Below are positions 3,296 through 57,405 of a DNA stretch of 64,000 bases, one piece after another. The stretch comes from Eledone cirrhosa (taxonomy: Eukaryota): contig OZ024741.1 of assembly GCA_964016885.1 (NCBI GenBank), forward strand, positions 182,900,001-182,964,000, written 5' to 3'. How positions within the stretch are numbered: the stretch's first letter is position 1; each line of letters opens with the position of its first letter. The notes below the pieces were generated by a model. That model saw nothing but the letters and a program-made list of their open reading frames with translations. It did no database searches and was not told the DNA's origin. The position numbers and the translations under genes are program-made.

Positions 3296-3536
3296 TTAAC
3301 CCATTAGTATTTAAACCGGCCAGAATTCTTTCACCTCTTTTTTTTCAAACTAGCCATAACTGGCTGCTCATACTGATGTTAAAGTACTGTTCTCAAAATA
3401 AATAACACCAAAATCTCATAGATTCGATATTATGCGAGATAATTATGTAAGATAATTATGTAAGATAAAGCCTTTACCACAAAAAAATAAAACAATAGTA
3501 TATATATATAGAGTAATGTAAATGCTAAGGGTTTAA
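3296..3536. mobile_element. TTAA-flanked (piggyBac-type) MITE, family 1
   Basis: Termini TTAACCCATTAGTATTT ... AAATGCTAAGGGTTTAA. Homologous copies lie at 26949-27150, 43089-43303 and 58146-58317. Confidence 0.7.
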
Positions 3537-20973: not shown

Positions 20974-21012
20974 TATTAAATAAATGGAAACTATATTTAT
21001 AAAACCATATTT

Positions 21013-21075
21013 ATTTTATTATATATATTTCAAGGGCAACCAAGATAACATTGGTACGCTTTCATCAGATAAAAT
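21013..21075 (-). ncRNA. Type I minimal hammerhead ribozyme (inverted pLTR copy)
   Basis: Minus strand: AUUUUAU-CUGAUGA-aagcguaccaauguuaucuugguugcccuu-GAAA-uauaua-UA-AUAAAAU. It has a 7-bp stem I, stem II aag/cuu plus accaa/uuggu, and a palindromic stem III. Confidence 0.85.
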
Positions 21076-21929
21076 ACAAAGTTTGTTTTATAAATAGAGA
21101 CATACCCATCGGTTGGAAATTCCCTGGATAGTGGAAATATATTAGGGATTATTCAAACTTATGTATGAATATGCAAATGAATATGTAAATAATTGAAAAA
21201 CAACCGTTTATTTAAATGACACTGGAGAAAGAGAGAAAAAAATATTACGAGAGATAGAGAGAAGAAATTAACAAGAGGATGAATAAAACTCATATAACGT
21301 TAATTTGGGGGGAATATATTCAATGGTACGTGTATTTACGATTAATTAGTTGTTAAAATTCTTTTCTAATATAATATTTACTGTTATAAGTAGATAGAAA
21401 AATAAATAGATAAAAGAATAGATTTGAAAAATAAATAAATAAATGGATAAATGAATAGATGGGTATATCGTGTTATAGATAATTGTTTTAATGAGTTATG
21501 AGGGTTATTGGTTTTGTATTTAATGTAAGTAAATATTAAGTTAAATTAAATTAAGTTAACTGAGTTAATAAGAATATTTATATTTATATATTTTAAAATG
21601 GGAAGATACGGAAAAACTCTAGTTTTGTTTATTTATTCGACTATTTTGTCAAAATAAGTATAAATGTTAAAGATATATTTAACCAGAATTAGTTAGTGTT
21701 TATAAATCTAATAAAAGATATTGAAAAATATTAAAAATTCGGGAAAATTTTTTTTTAAATAATTTATAAGAGATAAGTAATTTTTAAAAAAATAAGTAAT
21801 TTTTAAAAATAGATAAAAAATTAAAGAAAATTAAAGAAATAAAAAATAAAGAATTAAAAATTATTAAGATTAAAATTAAAATTAAAATTAAAATTATATA
21901 TGTATATATTTTAAGAAGCTTTAAGTGAA

Positions 21930-21987
21930 ATCTGATGAAAGCGTACCAATGTTATCTTGGTTGCCCTTGAAATATACATAATAAAAT
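21930..21987 (+). ncRNA. Hammerhead ribozyme copy lacking the 5' strand of stem I (cut by the inversion junction)
   Basis: CTGATGA at 21932, GAAA at 21969, then tataca-TA-ATAAAAT. The sequence upstream belongs to the inverted arm. Confidence 0.7.
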
Positions 21988-22178
21988 AAATATGGTTTTA
22001 TAAATATAGTTTCCATTTATTTAATATCATTGAATATTTACTCCAGTAAACTGTTGAGTGCTCTAAATCAGTTATAAACATTTATATTTGTCGGACTTCC
22101 AACAAATTAAATACCACTTCAACTTATAAATAGCTCCTTTAATGTTGAGCACTTTAAACTATAACTGACTGCTAAATA

Positions 22179-24332
22179 ATGGAATTCTTTAGGATTTTTC
22201 TTCTCTAAAAGATGTACCTTTACCTAAGAATAAGGACTATCTTAAACAACTCATTGAAAAATCTGACTCCTTTATACGAAGACTTAGATGGTGTGCCTTC
22301 CATTTCGATAGAAAACCAGATGAAATACACAAATAAATCCAGTTACAACTTCGATATGATCTTCAAATCCAAGAAAAATCCACCTAACAACAAACTATTA
22401 ATGGAATTTGAAAATGAAATAATATCAATTATACAAAACATCAAATTCAATAAAAACCAATTTGCAGGCCAGGAATACCTTAAAGGCCTTAAGAATAATA
22501 TAGACAATCTTGAAAAAACTGAGAAAATCCTCATAAAATCTGACAAAACTAACAATCTATACGGAATGCAAAAGGACGAATTACAATAACCTTATATTGA
22601 AAGAACTAAGGAAAAACTACAAAATAACAACTAATGAAGATCTTGAAATGGTAAATAGAGAAGCTTCTGAAATAATCCATAAATTAGGCATCGAAAATAG
22701 GACCGAACCCTTTATACCTAGAAGACCAAAAATTAACCTGAAAGACCACAAAAGAAACTTTGAAACAGAACTTCCAGTCAGACTTAGAGCACCATCTAAA
22801 TCAGACTTAGTAAACATATATTAGATAGAATCATACCGCAACTTAAAGAAATATCTTACCTAAAACTATGGAACGGTACTAACGAATTTAAACATAACAA
22901 AAAATCATTCAATTGGATATTGCAAACTACTACTCCTCCATTACTCCTAATTTACTTAATAAAGCTCTTCTCTATGCATCTAAACATACAGATTTATCTA
23001 GCGAAGAAATGCATATCATTTTAACTGCACGGAAAACTTTAATTCTCTGGAGAAGAGCCGATAGAAATAATAATTTTGATATCACCATAGGATCATCACA
23101 CTCGGCGCAAATAACAGATCTTGTGGGGCTATTTATTAATAATACACTGCATAGAAAAATACCAGAGATGACCGGTGGTTTATATGCTGCTTTTAATTAA
23201 AAATCATAGTAATTGTGAAATTAATAGAAAAAGAAAATCCATAATACAATTCTTCAATAGCTACAACCTTTAAGTTAGAAATAGAGAATAACTATAAAAT
23301 TGTTAACTTTTTAGACGTAACATTAAACCTTAACACAGAGTTCTACTATCCATTCCATAAAATTAATGAGAATCTAAACTATGTAAGTTTTAACTCTAAT
23401 CATCCTAGATCTATCAAGAACACTATTGTTAATTCTATCCAACAACGTATTTCACGCATCTCCGCTAATAAAAACATTTTTGACGATAAGGCAGAATATT
23501 ATAATGAAGCTTTAAATAGAGCAGGTTATATAAATAAGATTAAATACATCGACAACAGTGATAAGGCAAATAACCCTACTATTAATTATAATTACAATAA
23601 AAAATCTAACTTAAACTCTCTAAAACTAACAGAAGAAATAGAACTAGAAATATTATTTGGTACTCACCCCCATTCTCATTAAGCATTAAAACACCTTTAG
23701 CAAAGCTATTCTTTAAAGCACTAGATAAATGTTTTCCTAAAGCCCACAGATACCACTCAATCTTTAACAGGCATACTATAAAACTATCTTACTCTACTAC
23801 TATGAACATAGCACAGAATATAAATAGAATCAATAATAGAAATTTAAACCATAACCAAAATAGCAGTAATATCTCTAGCAATATCCAACATAATAGTACC
23901 GTTTTGAATAACAACTCCGCAACTGTAAAATTAAATTAAACTGTCCTTTACAAAATAAGTGTTTAGATAAGGACGTGGTCTATAAATGTACAGTCAAAAC
24001 CAGTGATAATATATTTAACTATGTAGGTGCAACTTCTACAGAATTTAAAAGCCGTTGGAATAATCACAAATTCTCTTTCCAAAGATTTGATAAAAAATCT
24101 TCAACTTCTCTTTCAAACCTGATATGGAACTTAAAATGCAAGAATATGGACTATTCTTTAACTTGGGAAATAGTTTCGAAAGCACCCGCATACCGAAACA
24201 CAGCTTTATCTATATTTTGCAAGTTGTGTGTTGAGGAAATTTTTTCCATACTTAAACTCTATTAATATAAGGACGAATTTATTTAGTTCTTGTAGACATC
24301 GCCTGAATTCAACATTTAGAACAAAAATATAA
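22179..24332 (+). pseudogene. Penelope-like RT + GIY-YIG endonuclease ORF, multiply frameshifted
   Basis: Fragments include SLKDVPLP..YLKQLIEKSDSFIRRLRW, IKSDKTNNLY, INLKDHKRNF...PVRL..PSKSDL, DIANYYSSIT, FDITIGSSHSAQITDLVGL, GGLY (the YRDD-type aspartates are deleted) and VNFLDVTLNL. The endonuclease region reads (C>R)NCKIKLNCPLQNKC-VYKCTV..YVGATSTEFKSRWNNH..CKLCVEE..SSCRH. Confidence 0.9.
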
Positions 24333-25280
24333 ATTATAATTACACTTATATTTCTACTTATTTTCATAACAATCTTGTCCATTTGGTTTTAATATATTGA
24401 TATCTCTAAATCATATCTATAACATTTGCTATAATTTCACTTCTTAAAGTTTCTTAAAATATATACATATATAATTCTAATTTTAATTGTAATTTTATTC
24501 TTTATTTTTTATTTCTTTAATTTTTTATCTATTTTTAAAAATTACTTATTTTTAAAAAAAATTACTTATCTCTTATAAACTTTTTTTTATTTTTTATTTT
24601 CCCGAACTTTTTATATTTTTTCAATATCTTTTATTAGATTTATAAACACTAATTTATTAGATTTATAAACACTAATTTATTAGATTTATAAACACTAAAT
24701 CTTTAACATTTATACTTTATTTTGACAAAATAGTCTCATACTAACAAATAAATAAACAAAACGAGTTTTTTCCGTATCTTCCCATTTTAAAATATATAAA
24801 TATAAATATTCTTATTAACTCATTTAACTTAATATTTACTTACATTAAATACAAAACCAATAACCCTCATAACTCGATATACCCAACTATTCATTTATTT
24901 TATCCATTTATCCATTTATTTATTTTTCAAATATATTCTTCTATCTATTTATTTTTCTATCTACTTATAACAGTAAATATTATATTAGAAAAGAATTTTA
25001 ACTAATTAATCGTAAATACACGTACCATTGAATATATTCCCCCAAATTAACGTTATATGAGTTTTATTCATCCTCTTGTTAATTTCTTCTCTCTATCTCT
25101 CTCGTAATATTTTTTTCTCTCTCTCTTTCTCCAGTGTCATTTAAATAAACAGTTGTTTTTCAATTATTTACATATTCATTTGTATATTTACACATAAGTT
25201 TGAATAATCCCTAATATATTTCCACTATCCAGTGAATTTCCAACCAATGGGTATGTCTCTATTTATAAAACAAACTTTGT

Positions 25281-25343
25281 ATTTTATCTGATGAAAGCGT
25301 ACCAATGTTATGTTGATTGCCCTTGAAATATATATAATAAAAT
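25281..25343 (+). ncRNA. Type I minimal hammerhead ribozyme in 3' pLTR
   Basis: ATTTTAT-CTGATGA(25288)-stem II-GAAA(25325)-tatata-TA-ATAAAAT. Cleavage is predicted after 25336. Confidence 0.85.
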
Positions 25344-25388
25344 AAATATGGTTTTATAAATATAGTTTCCATTTATTTAATATCATTG

Positions 25389-28300: not shown

Positions 28301-28836
28301 AACTTGTTCTACTGTAATACCACATTATGGATGTTCAGATATTGACCGACTCTCTCTCTCTATCATCATCATAATTGCCATTTTACCTCCGTTCTTCCAC
28401 GCTAGCATGGGTTAGACGGGTTGTCCTGTTGTGGGGAATGTCCAGTCGGCTGACCTTGTCTTGCTCATACGGGAGCTCTCTCTCTATATATATACACACA
28501 CACACATACATACACAGAGGCATTACTTGAGATACAACCTATAAGACCATTTGCAGTAACAACTGAGCGAAAAGTTGTTAGAGATTAAAGGCACAGGCTA
28601 TAGATATTAGAATATATTTTCTTTTCCTAAGTGTCAAATTTCAAAAGTTGAAAGGTTGAGACTGTATTTTTCAGTGTTGGTTAATGGTTGAACAGGAGTT
28701 GATGTTTGAACAAGCAAAGGCCTTAGTTGATGTCTCCCAGCCAAGACTGGTGGTCAACCTGCCAGCAACAGAGCTAGTTAGTAAGAATCACCTGCTCAAC
28801 AGCTAGGCATGATCAATGTGGAAATAGATGTTAGAG

Positions 28837-28914: not shown

Positions 28915-29313
28915 GGGAGACCCAAGAAGACCTGGGATGAGATGATAAAGGCCAACCTTACCTAATTGCACCTCTCAAGGGCAACGACAGACGACCGTGA
29001 CCTCTGGCGTCACACAGTAATACAGAAGACCCGACTCCCCACAGGAACAAGCCGAAGCTGAAGCATATAGACAATACCCCTCCTCCCCACTGCAAAAAAA
29101 GCACCCAGCCCACACTGTAAAGTGGACGTGTAGGTGCCACGGAAAAAAGCACCCAGCACTACTGTAAATGAGGTTGGTGTTAGGAAGGGCATCCAGCTGT
29201 AGAAATCAAGCCAAGGTCAGCCGACTGGACACTGCCCACAACAGGACAACCCGTCTAACCCATGGTAGCGTGGAAGAATGGACGTAAAACAGTGATGATG
29301 ATGATGATGATGA

Positions 29314-29317
<4 letters not shown>
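28915..29317 (+). mobile_element. 5'-truncated copy of the RTE LINE
   Basis: Aligns with 1476-1925, from GRPKKTWDEMIKANLT through the UTR to (GAT)n. Confidence 0.92.
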
Positions 29318-29346
<29 letters not shown>

Positions 29347-29353
<7 letters not shown>

Positions 29354-29665
29354 CATATTATATTATTTAACAATGTTAACAAAGGCAAGTTATTTTACAT
29401 ATTTCATTCATTGTTTTATGATTGTTTCGGAGGGTTGATCATATCGATATATTGACTGATCTATAGCAGTTAGAGAACTGTATACTATCAGACATAATAT
29501 ATGGGTTTGATCGTACTGTCTTCTTCGGAAACAGTTGTTCTCTAACTGCTATAGATCAACCAATATATCAATATGATCAACCCTCCGAAACGATCATAAA
29601 ACAATGAATGAAATATGTAAAATAACTTGCCTTTGTTATCATTGTTAAATAACATATGTAATATA
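29347..29665. repeat. Fold-back element A: ~130-bp inverted arms, 58-bp spacer
   Basis: About 29347-29478 is the reverse complement of 29537-29665 with a few mismatches and one small indel. Confidence 0.95.
29412..29533 (-). ncRNA. Hammerhead-like motif with U4C core and ~93-nt stem II region (decayed)
   Basis: Minus strand: UGUUU-CCGAAGA-(93 nt)-GAAA-caauca-UA-AAACA. The other arm has GAAA-cgauca-UA, implying an ancestral palindrome CGAUCG. Confidence 0.55.
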
Positions 29666-29974
29666 TCAGACTCTGTATCTGAAAGATTGACTCAGTGAAA
29701 CATGGAACTAATCTCTGGATCTCACTGAACTACATGCTAACAGATTACATTGAGTTCTAACTACAGTATAGACCCTACCACGAAAGGTAGACCACATTGA
29801 ATTGGGTATGTGTTTGTGTGTGTGTGTGTGTACAAAATGAGTTGACAGAACTAGCATGGGTTTCACTACTGGTTGCATCTCAGCGTACTCAATAAGTAAT
29901 GTTATATAAACTTCCAGAGTAGACAATAGTTATTCACTTCAATACAACACACGTAAATGGGTACCTTCAATCTA

Positions 29975-30087
29975 TACCTTATACTCGAGTTTCGGCCACA
30001 ATGCAGCAATAGGGTGCACACCATCTACTGTCTGCATTTATTATGCAACAATGCTCAATCGGTGCATGTGGGCTTCATCAGCGGGTT
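29975..30087 (-). ncRNA. Hammerhead core with ~81-nt stem II region (element B)
   Basis: Minus strand: CUGAUGA(30081-30075)-agcccaca...uguggcc-GAAA(29993-29990)-CUCGAG-UA. Stem III is a perfect palindrome, but stem I is poorly paired. Confidence 0.6.
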
Positions 30088-30384
30088 TCGCCTAATCAAT
30101 AACCAATCTATCAACAGAATTCGGTTCCAGTCCGTGTCGGCCAATACAGTAAAGCATTAACAACTGAAATCCCTACATGTCATCACAATGCCATCCATCG
30201 ATCGGCTACTGATTCAGAAATTTATGTGATGACTGGAGACGAAATTCAAATAATTCTACTCCTGCCATAAGCACTCAGCCAACGTATCTCAAACACAAAT
30301 TAACGAGCGAGTGAAAAAATCAGTCTCTAATCGCAGTAGAATAGAATGGTAGCATTCGGCTGTTATATATATATATATATATAT

Positions 30385-30641
30385 AATGAAACAGTTCCTT
30401 ATATTAAACAAAAAAAGTTCATTATTTAACGATCGTTTCTAGGATATATATGTGTTAGAATTGGCATGCATATTCAACAGATCTATGTACAAAATTATAC
30501 AAAATTATACAGTTTGTATAATTTTGTATAATTTTGTACATAGATCTGTTGAATATGCATGCCAATTCTAACACATATATATCCTAGAAACGATCGTTAA
30601 ATAATGAACTTTTTTTGTTTAATATAAGGAACTGTTTCATT
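30385..30641. repeat. Fold-back element C: perfect 127-bp palindrome with 3-nt loop, followed by a ~165-bp unique tail to 30806
   Basis: 30385-30511 is the reverse complement of 30515-30641. Each arm carries GAAA-CGATCG-TT-AAATAATGAA, a hammerhead 3' half related to element A (GAAACGATCATAAAACAATGAA). Confidence 0.95.
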
Positions 30642-30964
30642 GTTTTATTCATTATTTGTTTAATATTTTATCTTGACTCTGTATACCGTTTATCTTTCAC
30701 CGAAAGTGATTTTTCATTACATCTCTTCTTTCCATGATATCCGGAATACATTGAGTTCTTCATACGGATTGGACACTACCGTAAACTCTTGGTAGATTTA
30801 TCTACATATATATATATATATATATATTAGAAAGTGAGGTTTTTTTTACAAAATGAAAAATAACCGAGGTGTCCTACACGAGTGAAAGTATAAAGAAAAA
30901 GAGATGAAATCGAAAATGCAACTGGAGTCTTATTTTTTAAAAAAATATATATATTTATTTGGTT

Positions 30965-31002
30965 CCTTTACCGGTTTCGCAGTTTTTCTGCTTTTCAAAA
31001 GG
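30965..31002 (-). ncRNA. Minimal type I hammerhead ribozyme, U3:A8 core variant
   Basis: Minus strand: CCUU-UUGAAAA-gcag-aaaaa-cugc-GAAA-ccgg-UA-AAGG. It has a perfect 4-bp stem I, a 4-bp stem II and a palindromic stem III ACCGGU. Confidence 0.75.
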
Positions 31003-31079
31003 TGAGTTGAGATGGAGGGTCTGTGGTTTTTCTCACATCTCAGATGTGAGAAAAACCACAGACCCTCCATCTCAACTCA

Positions 31080-31117
31080 CCTTTTGAAAAGCAGAAGAAC
31101 TGCGAAACCGGTACAGG
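31080..31117 (+). ncRNA. Mirror copy of the U3:A8 hammerhead (one stem I mismatch)
   Basis: CCTT-TTGAAAA-gcag-aagaa-ctgc-GAAA-ccgg-TA-CAGG. Confidence 0.65.
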
Positions 31118-31186
31118 AACCAAATAAATATATATATTTTTTTAAAAAATAAGACTCCAGTTGCATTTTCGATTTCATCTCTTTTT

Positions 31187-31236
<50 letters not shown>

Positions 31237-31739
31237 ACAAGAATATTTTACTTTTCTTTTTCTAAGTATAAGACATGAGAAGTTGAAAGGTAGAGAGACT
31301 ATATATATTTATACATACATACATACATACATACATACACTCACATATATTTCAACTCTGGTTTGTCCAACTGTTAACCAATGCTAAAAACTTTCTGGCA
31401 TGGGAAGAGAAAAAGGAATCTTATACTTATTTATTGATGAAAGTCTTTTAAAACAAAATATTTCAAATATAACACTAGGTTATATTTCTTTATATGCATT
31501 ATTTTTACTTTTAGCTATATCTGAGGATCTTTCGATTCCAGAGTCAGGTTTGATCATTAATAGATTGTTCCTCAAGCTGATCAACAGTGAAACATATGTA
31601 ATATGTTATTATATATGTTATGATGCAACACTGATTCTTTGCTGCTTTCCTTATACTATTAATACTGTGCTCTGTGAGAGTATCAAGTGCTTACCCGGCA
31701 TACCGCCTATGGATGCAATTATTGCACCTCTACACCTAT

Positions 31740-32568
31740 AGAGTTTTCTCCTTCAAAGTAATCCCCCTGAAGTATGTAACTGTAATCTTAGCTCTCTGCA
31801 GTGATCAAACTTTTTTCTTCATAATTTTATATACATGTCCTGTTTCAGGTCGTCAAGCAATGAGCACAGAGCAATGAACAAACTTGGAAACTCCGTCAGA
31901 AGCACTGGGATTGCTGCAGCAATTGTATGGGGATGAGATGATGTCACGCTCATGTGTTTTTGAGTGGTGCAAGAGGTTTAAAGAAGGATGCGAGGACGTG
32001 GAAGATGACCCCAGGAGCGGAAGGACCTCAACAACCAGAACTGAGGTCAACGTTGAGCGCGTCAGGCAGATGGTGCGTAGCAATCGTCGGCTGACTGTTC
32101 GACTGATGGCAAAATGAGCTGGGCATGAATCGGGACAGCGTCTGGAAGATTCTCACTGAAGATTTGTACGTGCGGAAAGTCTGCACGAAGATGGTTCCAG
32201 AACTGCTGAACGATGACCAGAAGGGTCAACGTATGCAAGTGTGCTAGGACATCCTCGAACATCTTGAAACCGAACCAGACTTGCTAGGGACAGTCCTCAC
32301 CGTTGATGAGTCATGGATCTTCGAGTACGACCCAGAGGGGACCCGCTTTGAAGACGTAGACGACATCAAAAAGGCTGCGACGACAGAACTGCGGAGGATC
32401 CCGAAAGAATCCTTCCAGGAGTGCATGCAGGCGTGGCAGAAAAGGATGGAAAAGTGCATTAGACTCCAGGGGGATTACTTTGAAGGAGAAAACTCTTAGT
32501 GTGAAGTTTGGGTTTGAAATAAATCTTTTGTGACATCAGTCCTGGAACTTTTCTGACCCACCTCGTAT
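31740..32568 (+). mobile_element. Mariner transposon remnant with internally deleted transposase (31860-32499)
   Basis: HTH region VFEWCKRFKEG..DDPRSGR, a KMVP linker, then TVDESWIFEYDPE fused directly to GTRFEDVDDIK...QGDYFEG, so most of the catalytic domain is missing. The right TIR ends ...CTGACCCACCTCG-TA. 31740-31770 is an inverted copy of 32466-32496. Confidence 0.9.
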
Positions 32569-56371: not shown

Positions 56372-57285
56372 TGAGAGAGAGAGAGGGAGAGAGATAGGGA
56401 GAGAGGGAGAGAGATAGGGAGAGAGGGAGAGAGAGGAAGAGAGGGAGAGAAGGAGAGAGGAAGAGAGGGCGAGAAGGAGAGGGAGAGAAGGAGAGAGAGA
56501 GAGGGAGAGAAGGAGAGAGAGAGGGAGAGAAGGAGAGAGAGAGAGGGAGAGAAGGAGAGAGAGAGAGGGAGAGAAGGAGAGAGAGAGAGGGAGAGAAGGA
56601 GAGAGAGGGAGGAAGAGAGAGGGGAAGAGAGGGAGAGAGAGGGGAAGAGAGGGAGAGAGAGGGGAAGAGAGGGAGAGAGGGAGAGAGAGGGGAAGAGAGG
56701 GAGAGAGAAAGAGAGAGAGGGGAAGAGGGGAAGAGAGAAAGAGAGAAAGAGAGAAAGAGAGATAGGGGAAGAGAGGAAGAGAGAAAGAGAGAGAGGGGAA
56801 GAGAGAAAGAGAGAGAGGGGAAGAGAGAAAGAGAGAGAGAGATGGGGAGAGAGAGAGAGAGATGGGGAGAGGGAGGGAAAGAGAGAGAGAGATGGGGGGG
56901 AGAGAGACGGGGAGAGAGATGGGGGGTGGGAGAGAGAGATGGGGAGAGAGAGATGGGGAGAGAGAGATGGAGAGAGAGATGGAGAGAGAGATGGAGAGAG
57001 AGATGGAGAGAGAGATGGGGAGAGAGATGGGGAGAGAGATGGGGAGAGAGATGGAGAGAGAGAGATGGAGAGAGAGAGATGGGGAGAGAGAGATGGGGGG
57101 GGAGAGAGATGGGGGGAGAGAGAGATGGGGGGAGAGAGAGAGATGGGGGGAGAGAGAGAGAGAGAGATGGGGAGAGAGAGAGAGAGATGGGGAGATGGGG
57201 AGAGAGAGAGAGAGATGGGGAGAGAGAGAGAGAGAGAGGGAGATGGGGAGAGAGAGAGAGAGATGGGGAGAGAGAGAGAGAGAGA

Positions 57286-57362
<77 letters not shown>

Positions 57363-57405
57363 GGAGAGAGAGAGAGAGAGAGAGATGGGGAGAGAGAGGG
57401 AGAGC
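56372..57405. repeat. ~1-kb purine-rich GA / GAGAGATGGG compound repeat
   Basis: Directly visible. It is the source of several low-complexity ORFs. Confidence 0.95.

Follow-up and report, generated by a model that had tools for sequence, protein, structure and literature searches.

We found that the stacked repeats at this locus are real features of a known kind: truncated, inverted ends of new families of Penelope-like elements (PLEs), plus one non-coding unit. The locus lies in a stretch of 64,000 nucleotides (the window), and related copies were collected by sequence pattern from 3.0 Gb of genome. The fold-backs, called A, C and D, are ordinary debris with thousands of copies in this genome. 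We think it probable that A, C and D are pLTR insertions of three PLE families, that element B is a non-coding unit, and that the fold-backs arose from two start sites. The links between insertions and families, the copy numbers, the TA-flanked ends, the single 5' stop in each family and the two outer ends were observed directly. The fixed points at which the fold-backs start and end are likely a record of elements being copied from both ends at once.

An earlier reading of the sequence alone (the sequence-only reading) had described four hammerhead-bearing elements separated by TA runs, three of them fold-backs. Comparison of the window with itself verified the inverted repeats at A (29359-29478/29537-29656; 120 nt, 95% identical, spacer of 58 nt), C (30385-30511/30515-30641; 127 nt, 100% identical) and D (30889-31040/31042-31193; 152 nt, 99% identical, with 2 differing sites). 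As had also been claimed, B is not palindromic; it contains no long inverted repeat. Reading from the left, a (TA)n target run (29316..29351) is followed by the inverted short arm of A (29352..29534, minus strand), an older Hydra-type pLTR that starts at family position +3, and by the tailed arm of A (29537..29802, plus strand), which starts within stem II at family position 58. The tail of A (29666-29802, plus strand) is homologous to that of C. A (TG)n run (29810..29831) marks the border with B (29840..30360, minus strand). B comprises the last 521 bp, on the 3' side, of a partial-tandem unit of ~860 bp that has no ORF and carries a type I hammerhead. After a (TA)n run (30364..30384) come the inverted short arm of C (30385..30511, minus strand; family positions 58-184), which is missing the first core box, and the tailed arm of C (30515..30808, plus strand; family positions 54-351), which corresponds to pLTR and 5' leader sequence from a Hydra-type element and ends in a tail (30642-30808, plus strand). 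A further (TA)n run (30809..30827) leads to the tailed arm of D (30828..31040, minus strand; family positions -2 to 217), a Neptune/Nematis-type pLTR, then to the short arm of D (31042..31193, plus strand; family positions -3 to 149) and to a (TA)n run on its right (31190..31233). The four TA runs of the sequence-only reading are thus all present, but A and B are separated by (TG)n. The tails that it saw on C and D also exist, but they are fixed parts of the families and not unique sequences, and A is tailed as well, to 29802. The hammerhead motifs of A through D are present, but a fifth hammerhead-bearing repeat end, E (31516..31736, plus strand), located 290 bp to the right of the A-D stack, had been overlooked.

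The GAAA-palindrome-TH motifs attributed to A through D were found in the window, as were the CUGANGA-like boxes attributed to A, B and D (CCGAAGA, CTGATGA and TTGAAAA). The box of A (29522-29528, minus strand) belongs to a whole but degraded hammerhead; stem III of the same arm (29417-29428, minus strand) reads CAATCA and is non-palindromic, and the tailed arm keeps the 3' half of a hammerhead (29587-29598, plus strand) and no box. B has its box at 30075-30081 and GAAA-CTCGAG-TA at 29982-29993, both on the minus strand, with stem I broken in the window copy. C has GAAA-CGATCG-TT at 30587-30598 (plus strand); the box is absent from both arms because the fold lies inside stem II. The boxes of D are at 30992-30998 (minus strand) and 31084-31090 (plus strand). 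E has CTGAGGA at 31521 and GAAA-CATATG-TA at 31589-31600, on the plus strand. When we scanned for complete motifs including stem I, the minus arm of D, with its U3-A8 core, was the only intact hammerhead among A-D; the first base of stem I is changed in the plus arm. The suggestion that such elements encode hammerheads on both strands therefore fails for the window copies. Across the 64 kb there were five complete motifs with stem I: the minus arm of D, E, two in a decayed PLE, and one at 3348. The decayed element is a Hydra-type PLE (20974-25382) with a broken reverse transcriptase and endonuclease (22199-24256) that are 40-55% identical to the C protein. It is flanked by an inverted repeat of ~1 kb, and its complete hammerheads are at 21068 (minus strand) and 25288 (plus strand). 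An Rfam scan of the window found no hammerhead among 49 matches up to E=10, just miRNA-type hairpin matches that were below their gathering scores. The long stems and variant cores of these hammerheads probably escape the models.

The ribozyme motif is conserved across copies of each family, as the sequence-only reading requires of a ribozyme, but among the window copies A-D a single motif is intact. Core boxes of type I hammerheads, stems I and II and the palindromic stem III are conserved in families A-D. We counted motifs by regular expression, so that unrelated background matches are included in the following tallies: in family C, CTGAAGA in 49/74 and stem III CGATCG in 39/44; in family D, TTGAAAA (a UUGAAAA core) in 55/61, the tally of stem III in this family being biased by the search motif; in family B, CTGATGA in 22/26; and in family A, CCGAAGA, the most frequent word, in 15/120 and stem III CGATCG in 18/31. 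In family C the hammerhead consists of a stem I of 9 bp, the box CUGAAGA, ~120 nt of stem II, and GAAA-CGAUCG-UU. The type I topology and palindromic stem III are like those of the minimal PLE hammerheads in PMC4209133, where the U3-A8 core variant of D has already been reported, and where opposite-strand hammerhead pairs 100-700 bp apart are attributed to truncated PLEs. Unlike those minimal hammerheads, A, B and C have a very long stem II, A and C have a long stem I of 9-10 bp, and the core of A, CCGAAGA, is a U4C variant; U4C is reported to reduce hammerhead activity in vitro (PMC3088659). Calculated hairpin energies were -184, -195 and -251 kcal/mol, compared to -7.5 to -46.5 kcal/mol for the ribozyme folds, and a read-through transcript would be predicted to form the long hairpin in preference to the ribozyme fold.

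Two of the three fold-backs trace to full-length elements. The tailed arm of C was identical, at 294/294 bases, to a pLTR (locus L129) that is part of a 6.6-kb Hydra-type element: an ORF starts ~150 bp after this pLTR, and the pLTR recurs 6,599 bp downstream. The same direct partial tandem of pLTR, ORF and pLTR, with a unit of 6,599 bp, was present at three places (L121/122, L125/126 and L129/130). Another copy, L134, has an uninterrupted frame of 827 aa containing DKT, RWR, YRDD, CxCX5C and YIGAT, and no GxKF. The C protein had no Pfam match at E<=0.01. Judged by these motifs, C is the pLTR of a PLE that encodes a reverse transcriptase and endonuclease and probably belongs to the Hydra clade. 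Like the Hydra-clade PLEs of PMC8557442, it has a single ORF, DKT, CxCX5C, no GxKF, a C-terminal nuclease motif, a pLTR hammerhead, (TA)n targets, an inverted 5' copy and a tail. It differs from them in having RWR, an RWK-like word, in place of RWK; in its unit, which at 6.6 kb, including a long 3' UTR, exceeds the length of generally <3 kb given for the clade; in its tail of ~137 nt, compared to 30-40 bp; and in its hammerhead stem II of ~120 nt. The same source describes partial tandems, inverted 5' copies, 30-40-bp tails and (TA)n targeting for PLEs, and palindromic junctions, solo pLTRs and TATA or initiator words in pLTRs are described in PMC3846280. A pattern from the tail shared by A and C had 5,010 exact matches in the genome, and the reversed control had 0.

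The hammerhead motif of D had 13,246 matches in the genome (reversed control, 0). We found no linked ORF near D copies across twenty 10-kb stretches; the PLE ORF in one of these (L138) belongs to another family. The master element was reached only by following the tail, with a pattern that demanded non-TA sequence after it. This pattern had 99 matches, most of which shared one continuation. The tail continues into an ORF1 of 409 aa and then an overlapping frame of 775 aa for reverse transcriptase and GIY-YIG endonuclease, and pLTR pairs form direct partial tandems in two loci (L189 and L193), with a unit of ~4.7 kb. In Pfam the 775-aa frame matched GIY-YIG (E 3.7e-06, above the cut-off) and RVT_1 (E 4.9e-06, just below the cut-off); ORF1 had no match at E<0.4. 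By its motifs (DKG, GLKF, and a CX4CxxC linker before the C-terminal GIY-YIG), D is assigned as the pLTR of a Neptune/Nematis-type PLE, which it resembles in these features, in combining reverse transcriptase with GIY-YIG, and in its pLTR hammerhead, and from which it differs in its tail of 68 nt. An upstream ORF1 that overlaps in the -1 frame is an option named for PLEs in the legend of Fig. 1 of PMC8557442. In D the overlap is 88 nt (L189:1571-1658, contig C1). It contains a T-TTT-TTA slippery-type heptamer, a putative frameshift signal.

A is, from its sequence, a pLTR from a family that is related to the Hydra-type C and older than it. We scored 40 of 1,493 genome candidates for A, and relatives were 84-91% identical. 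An endonuclease remnant on the same strand, 45-77% identical to the C protein, was present upstream of A in 7/30 loci that had longer upstream sequence. These remnants, together with the full-length elements of C and D, support the first of two explanations offered by the sequence-only reading, that of truncated fold-back insertions from several Penelope families at a (TA)n spot. No full-length master for A, B or E was found among the loci examined. The tails of A and C have diverged except in two motifs, which are exactly preserved, and in a short hairpin at the end; the conserved parts are candidates for a protein-binding or priming signal of Hydra-type elements.

B has a different organization. 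Among 2,310 genome candidates, 40 were scored, and relatives were 75-86% identical. The 3' end of B runs into its own 5' part, producing a unit of 862-883 bp in partial tandems, with a longest stop-free frame of 76 aa. In 30/30 loci the junction was followed by the same B unit, with no match to a PLE protein inside. B is the 3' part of this non-coding, hammerhead-bearing unit, which is likely moved by PLEs. B behaves like a non-autonomous PLE or a long retrozyme. It shares its lack of an ORF, its one type I hammerhead per unit, its head-to-tail partial tandems and its fixed 3' end with the non-LTR retrozymes and non-autonomous PLEs described in PMC7229834, bioRxiv 10.64898/2026.07.22.740005 and PMC8557442 (MRC1). 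B departs from retrozymes, as described in the first two of these sources, in size and in multimers: its unit is ~860 bp, compared to retrozyme monomers of ~170-400 nt, and its copies are dispersed, 5'-truncated partial tandems, unlike retrozyme multimers, with no two complete consecutive units among the matches examined. For E, 3,039 candidates were found and 40 scored, many with an inverted short arm, and no coding master was present in 12 loci. Eight equal-scoring copies of E, mostly ~60 kb apart at C12:17019364-17479066, are a large tandem segmental duplication.

Copies of each family begin at a fixed 5' site. The C sample was 70 entries from the start of the list of tail-pattern matches, apart from 10 that were skipped (7 already collected as 10-kb loci and 3 from a divergent subfamily), and all of its copies are tailed by selection; 4 more divergent copies were dropped and 66 kept. 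The D sample was 50 entries from the start of the motif list (6 others skipped as second arms or as already collected) and comprises 42 insertions after merging of 8 second arms. In C, 22/46 copies that end within the reference start within -3..+8 of the 5' edge of the hammerhead, and 20/66 run past the reference. In D, 25/36 start within -3..+8, a 12-base window, and 6/42 run past the reference. In A, 17/29 best matches start within -3..+12, a 16-base window. Although a uniform null for these starts is crude, they form sharp peaks. Across the genome, the fixed 5' site is the centre of 1,031 C fold-backs, compared to 6,275 hammerhead starts and 3,624 copies with native upstream sequence. Non-inverted solo copies stop at the same site as fold-backs. 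The sequence-only reading had reasoned that ordinary truncated pLTRs should have random centres and sit next to Penelope ORFs; homologues do occur beside such ORFs, but their centres are clustered.

The fixed 5' stop lies at or upstream of the ribozyme and not at the ribozyme cut site. In C, none of the 66 tailed arms and none of the 28 inverted arms starts at the cut site; two short or inverted arms of D start <=5 nt from the predicted one. The hammerhead is probably a passenger here; the copies contain it uncut. The pattern speaks against hammerhead cutting as the step that defines the RNA to be copied. A fixed 5' stop is not part of the account of PLE hammerheads in the portion of PMC4209133 available to us. 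We also considered a splice acceptor at the fixed 5' end and rejected it: solo copies have TA or unrelated flanking sequence upstream with no shared exon, and no AG is present at the site in A and C. The sequence around the stop suggests that it is probably a transcription start in the pLTR. There are TATA-like boxes at -32 in D and -28 in A, and an initiator-like word, TCATT, is at the stop in A and C; C is without a TATA box at -30. Promoters are known in pLTRs (PMC2377424, PMC3846280). A polyadenylation cut would also fit for A and C, in which AATAAA is 13-17 bases upstream of the stop.

The outer ends of the insertions fall at two sites. An adjacent inverted arm was present in 28/66 C copies, and this short arm ended at position 214 in 22/28; tailed arms ended at 351 in 55/66. 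In D, 21/42 insertions were fold-backs, with arms ending at 149 (19/63) or 217 (30/63). The C copy in the window is atypical: neither its centre (54/58) nor its short end (184) coincides with a fixed site of the family. At the centre, junctions of C fold-backs vary from copy to copy and are therefore of independent origin.

The fold-backs were likely made by twin priming. Transcription would begin at the fixed 5' site within the pLTR. The nuclease of the element would cut both strands of a (TA)n run, and each target end would prime reverse transcription, one at a near site and one at a far site on the RNA, such that the tail is the stretch between the two. Both copies would proceed to the 5' end of the RNA or stall, and would then be joined head to head. 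The template for both arms would be uncleaved RNA. The inserted copy would then be flanked by a TA run on either side, and later insertions could target these runs. For the Poseidon element PAc in vitro (PMC11167929), two internal start sites bound the tail, both strands are cut and extended, a dimer is predicted, hammerhead cleavage is not required, and the template is uncleaved RNA. The insertions described here would be similar in the two internal start sites that bound the tail, in the cutting and extension of both strands, and in the uncleaved RNA template. They are unlike PAc in that the sites are at target-like TA words, 68-140 nt apart, with one at each end of the insertion. Furthermore, neither arm contains the other in 5/28 short C fold-backs, in the window copy of A, or in the long insertions L128, L134 and L059. 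Long C insertions have a sense body that stops at the near site and an inverted arm that is tailed; in L128 and L134 the sense body is without the tail of the inverted arm. A simple snap-back cannot make arms that each have something the other lacks, which favours twin priming.

It is also possible, but rather unlikely in our view, that the second arm was self-primed: one cDNA would reach the 5' end of the RNA, fold back, and copy itself until it reached TA-like sequence able to pair with the opposite end of the target. Symmetric, nearly identical arms are expected from such a snap-back, and the C fold-backs fit this equally well: 21/28 were symmetric within 8 nt, and in 16 fold-backs the arms differed by 0.25 substitutions on average, compared to 3.5 between copies. 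Both outer ends are at TA-like words, as self-priming would have it, and palindromes at inverted junctions have been interpreted in this way (PMC3846280). What self-priming does not readily accommodate is the tail that the inverted arms of L128 and L134 have and their sense bodies lack, or the private sequence in each arm of L059; it would have to treat asymmetric copies as later central deletions, and the two outer sites would need to exchange roles from short insertions to full-length ones. Arms of palindromes may indeed become asymmetric by later deletion at the centre.

The second explanation offered by the sequence-only reading, in which short fold-backs form a class of their own, non-autonomous elements with ribozymes that transpose as hairpin units, seems to us very doubtful. 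Stereotyped and numerous copies (one centre region is common to the 1,031 C fold-backs) might suggest such a class, and B is a true non-coding mobile unit. However, B, the sole non-coding unit, is not palindromic, and the sequence of A, C and D is that of the pLTRs of coding elements. The differing junctions indicate independent birth of the fold-backs and not copying of a founder, solo copies without an inversion share their 5' stop, and the hairpin would block the ribozyme. That the palindromes are artefacts of assembly or of chimeric reads is hardly credible: the arms of C are 100% identical and no record among the short-read contigs and RAD reads spans its centre (these cover the families at high depth and the locus is beyond their resolution), but the arms of A are 5% different and offset by 58 nt, those of D differ at 2 sites, arms stop at family-specific sites over dozens of loci, and the same architecture has been published for PLEs (PMC8557442, PMC3846280).

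Our preferred reading, twin priming, can be extended. We suggest, as a possibility short of probable, that the enzyme is a dimer and that, once a (TA)n run is cut, it primes from the two ends at two different fixed sites on an RNA that starts just upstream of the uncut hammerhead, yielding hairpins of fixed size that resemble strong-stop products. We further suggest that this has occurred thousands of times in unrelated clades, Hydra-type and Neptune-type, and that the resulting perfect hairpins of 250-550 bp are a major source of double-stranded RNA for A-to-I editing. High potential for double-stranded RNA and hyper-editing are reported for octopus (PMC5625713). If the host is an octopus, PLE hairpins are candidates for the source of both. 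The formation of inverted PLE ends is named as an open question in PMC8557442. Young and abundant families provide a direct read-out of this process in the 5' stop, the two outer ends and the non-nested arms, and near-intact masters exist for work on inverted PLE ends in vitro. A literature search of main texts outside most subscription journals found no PLE hammerheads from octopus and no twin priming or fixed 5' stop for PLEs.

The insertions differ in apparent age. On sequence identity, A and B, at 84-91% and 75-86% to relatives, are old, and C and D, at 100% and 97% to their masters, are young. Each stacked insertion ends in TA, and we infer that the spot could be reused by later insertions. 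Cross-family stacking is mildly enriched at best. Within 1.5 kb, A had a D neighbour in 5/58 copies (p=0.001) and C had one in 3/66 (p=0.057); the other pairings were D with C, 0/42, B with D, 1/58, and B with C, 0/58. Any neighbouring hammerhead was found for 19/66 C, 7/42 D, 17/58 A and 19/58 B copies (shuffled, 0.4/66), but these counts include arms and tandems of the same family and were therefore not used as a measure of a hot spot. The pile of five elements is unusual and needs no special cause given tens of thousands of TA-seeking copies.

Several other features of the window lie near the stack or apart from it. A common repeat, of which the 3' end with its (TGA)n tail is at 29096-29315, borders directly on the TA run to the left of A, and related pieces are present elsewhere in the window. 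A 45-nt direct repeat of 80% identity flanks the A-D stack (28617-28661 and 31252-31296) and could be an old duplication or chance. To the right of E, 31800-32200 resembles, by eye, what is presumably a decayed mariner-type transposase gene. Farther away, 56373-57404 is a degenerate (GA)n tract of 1 kb.
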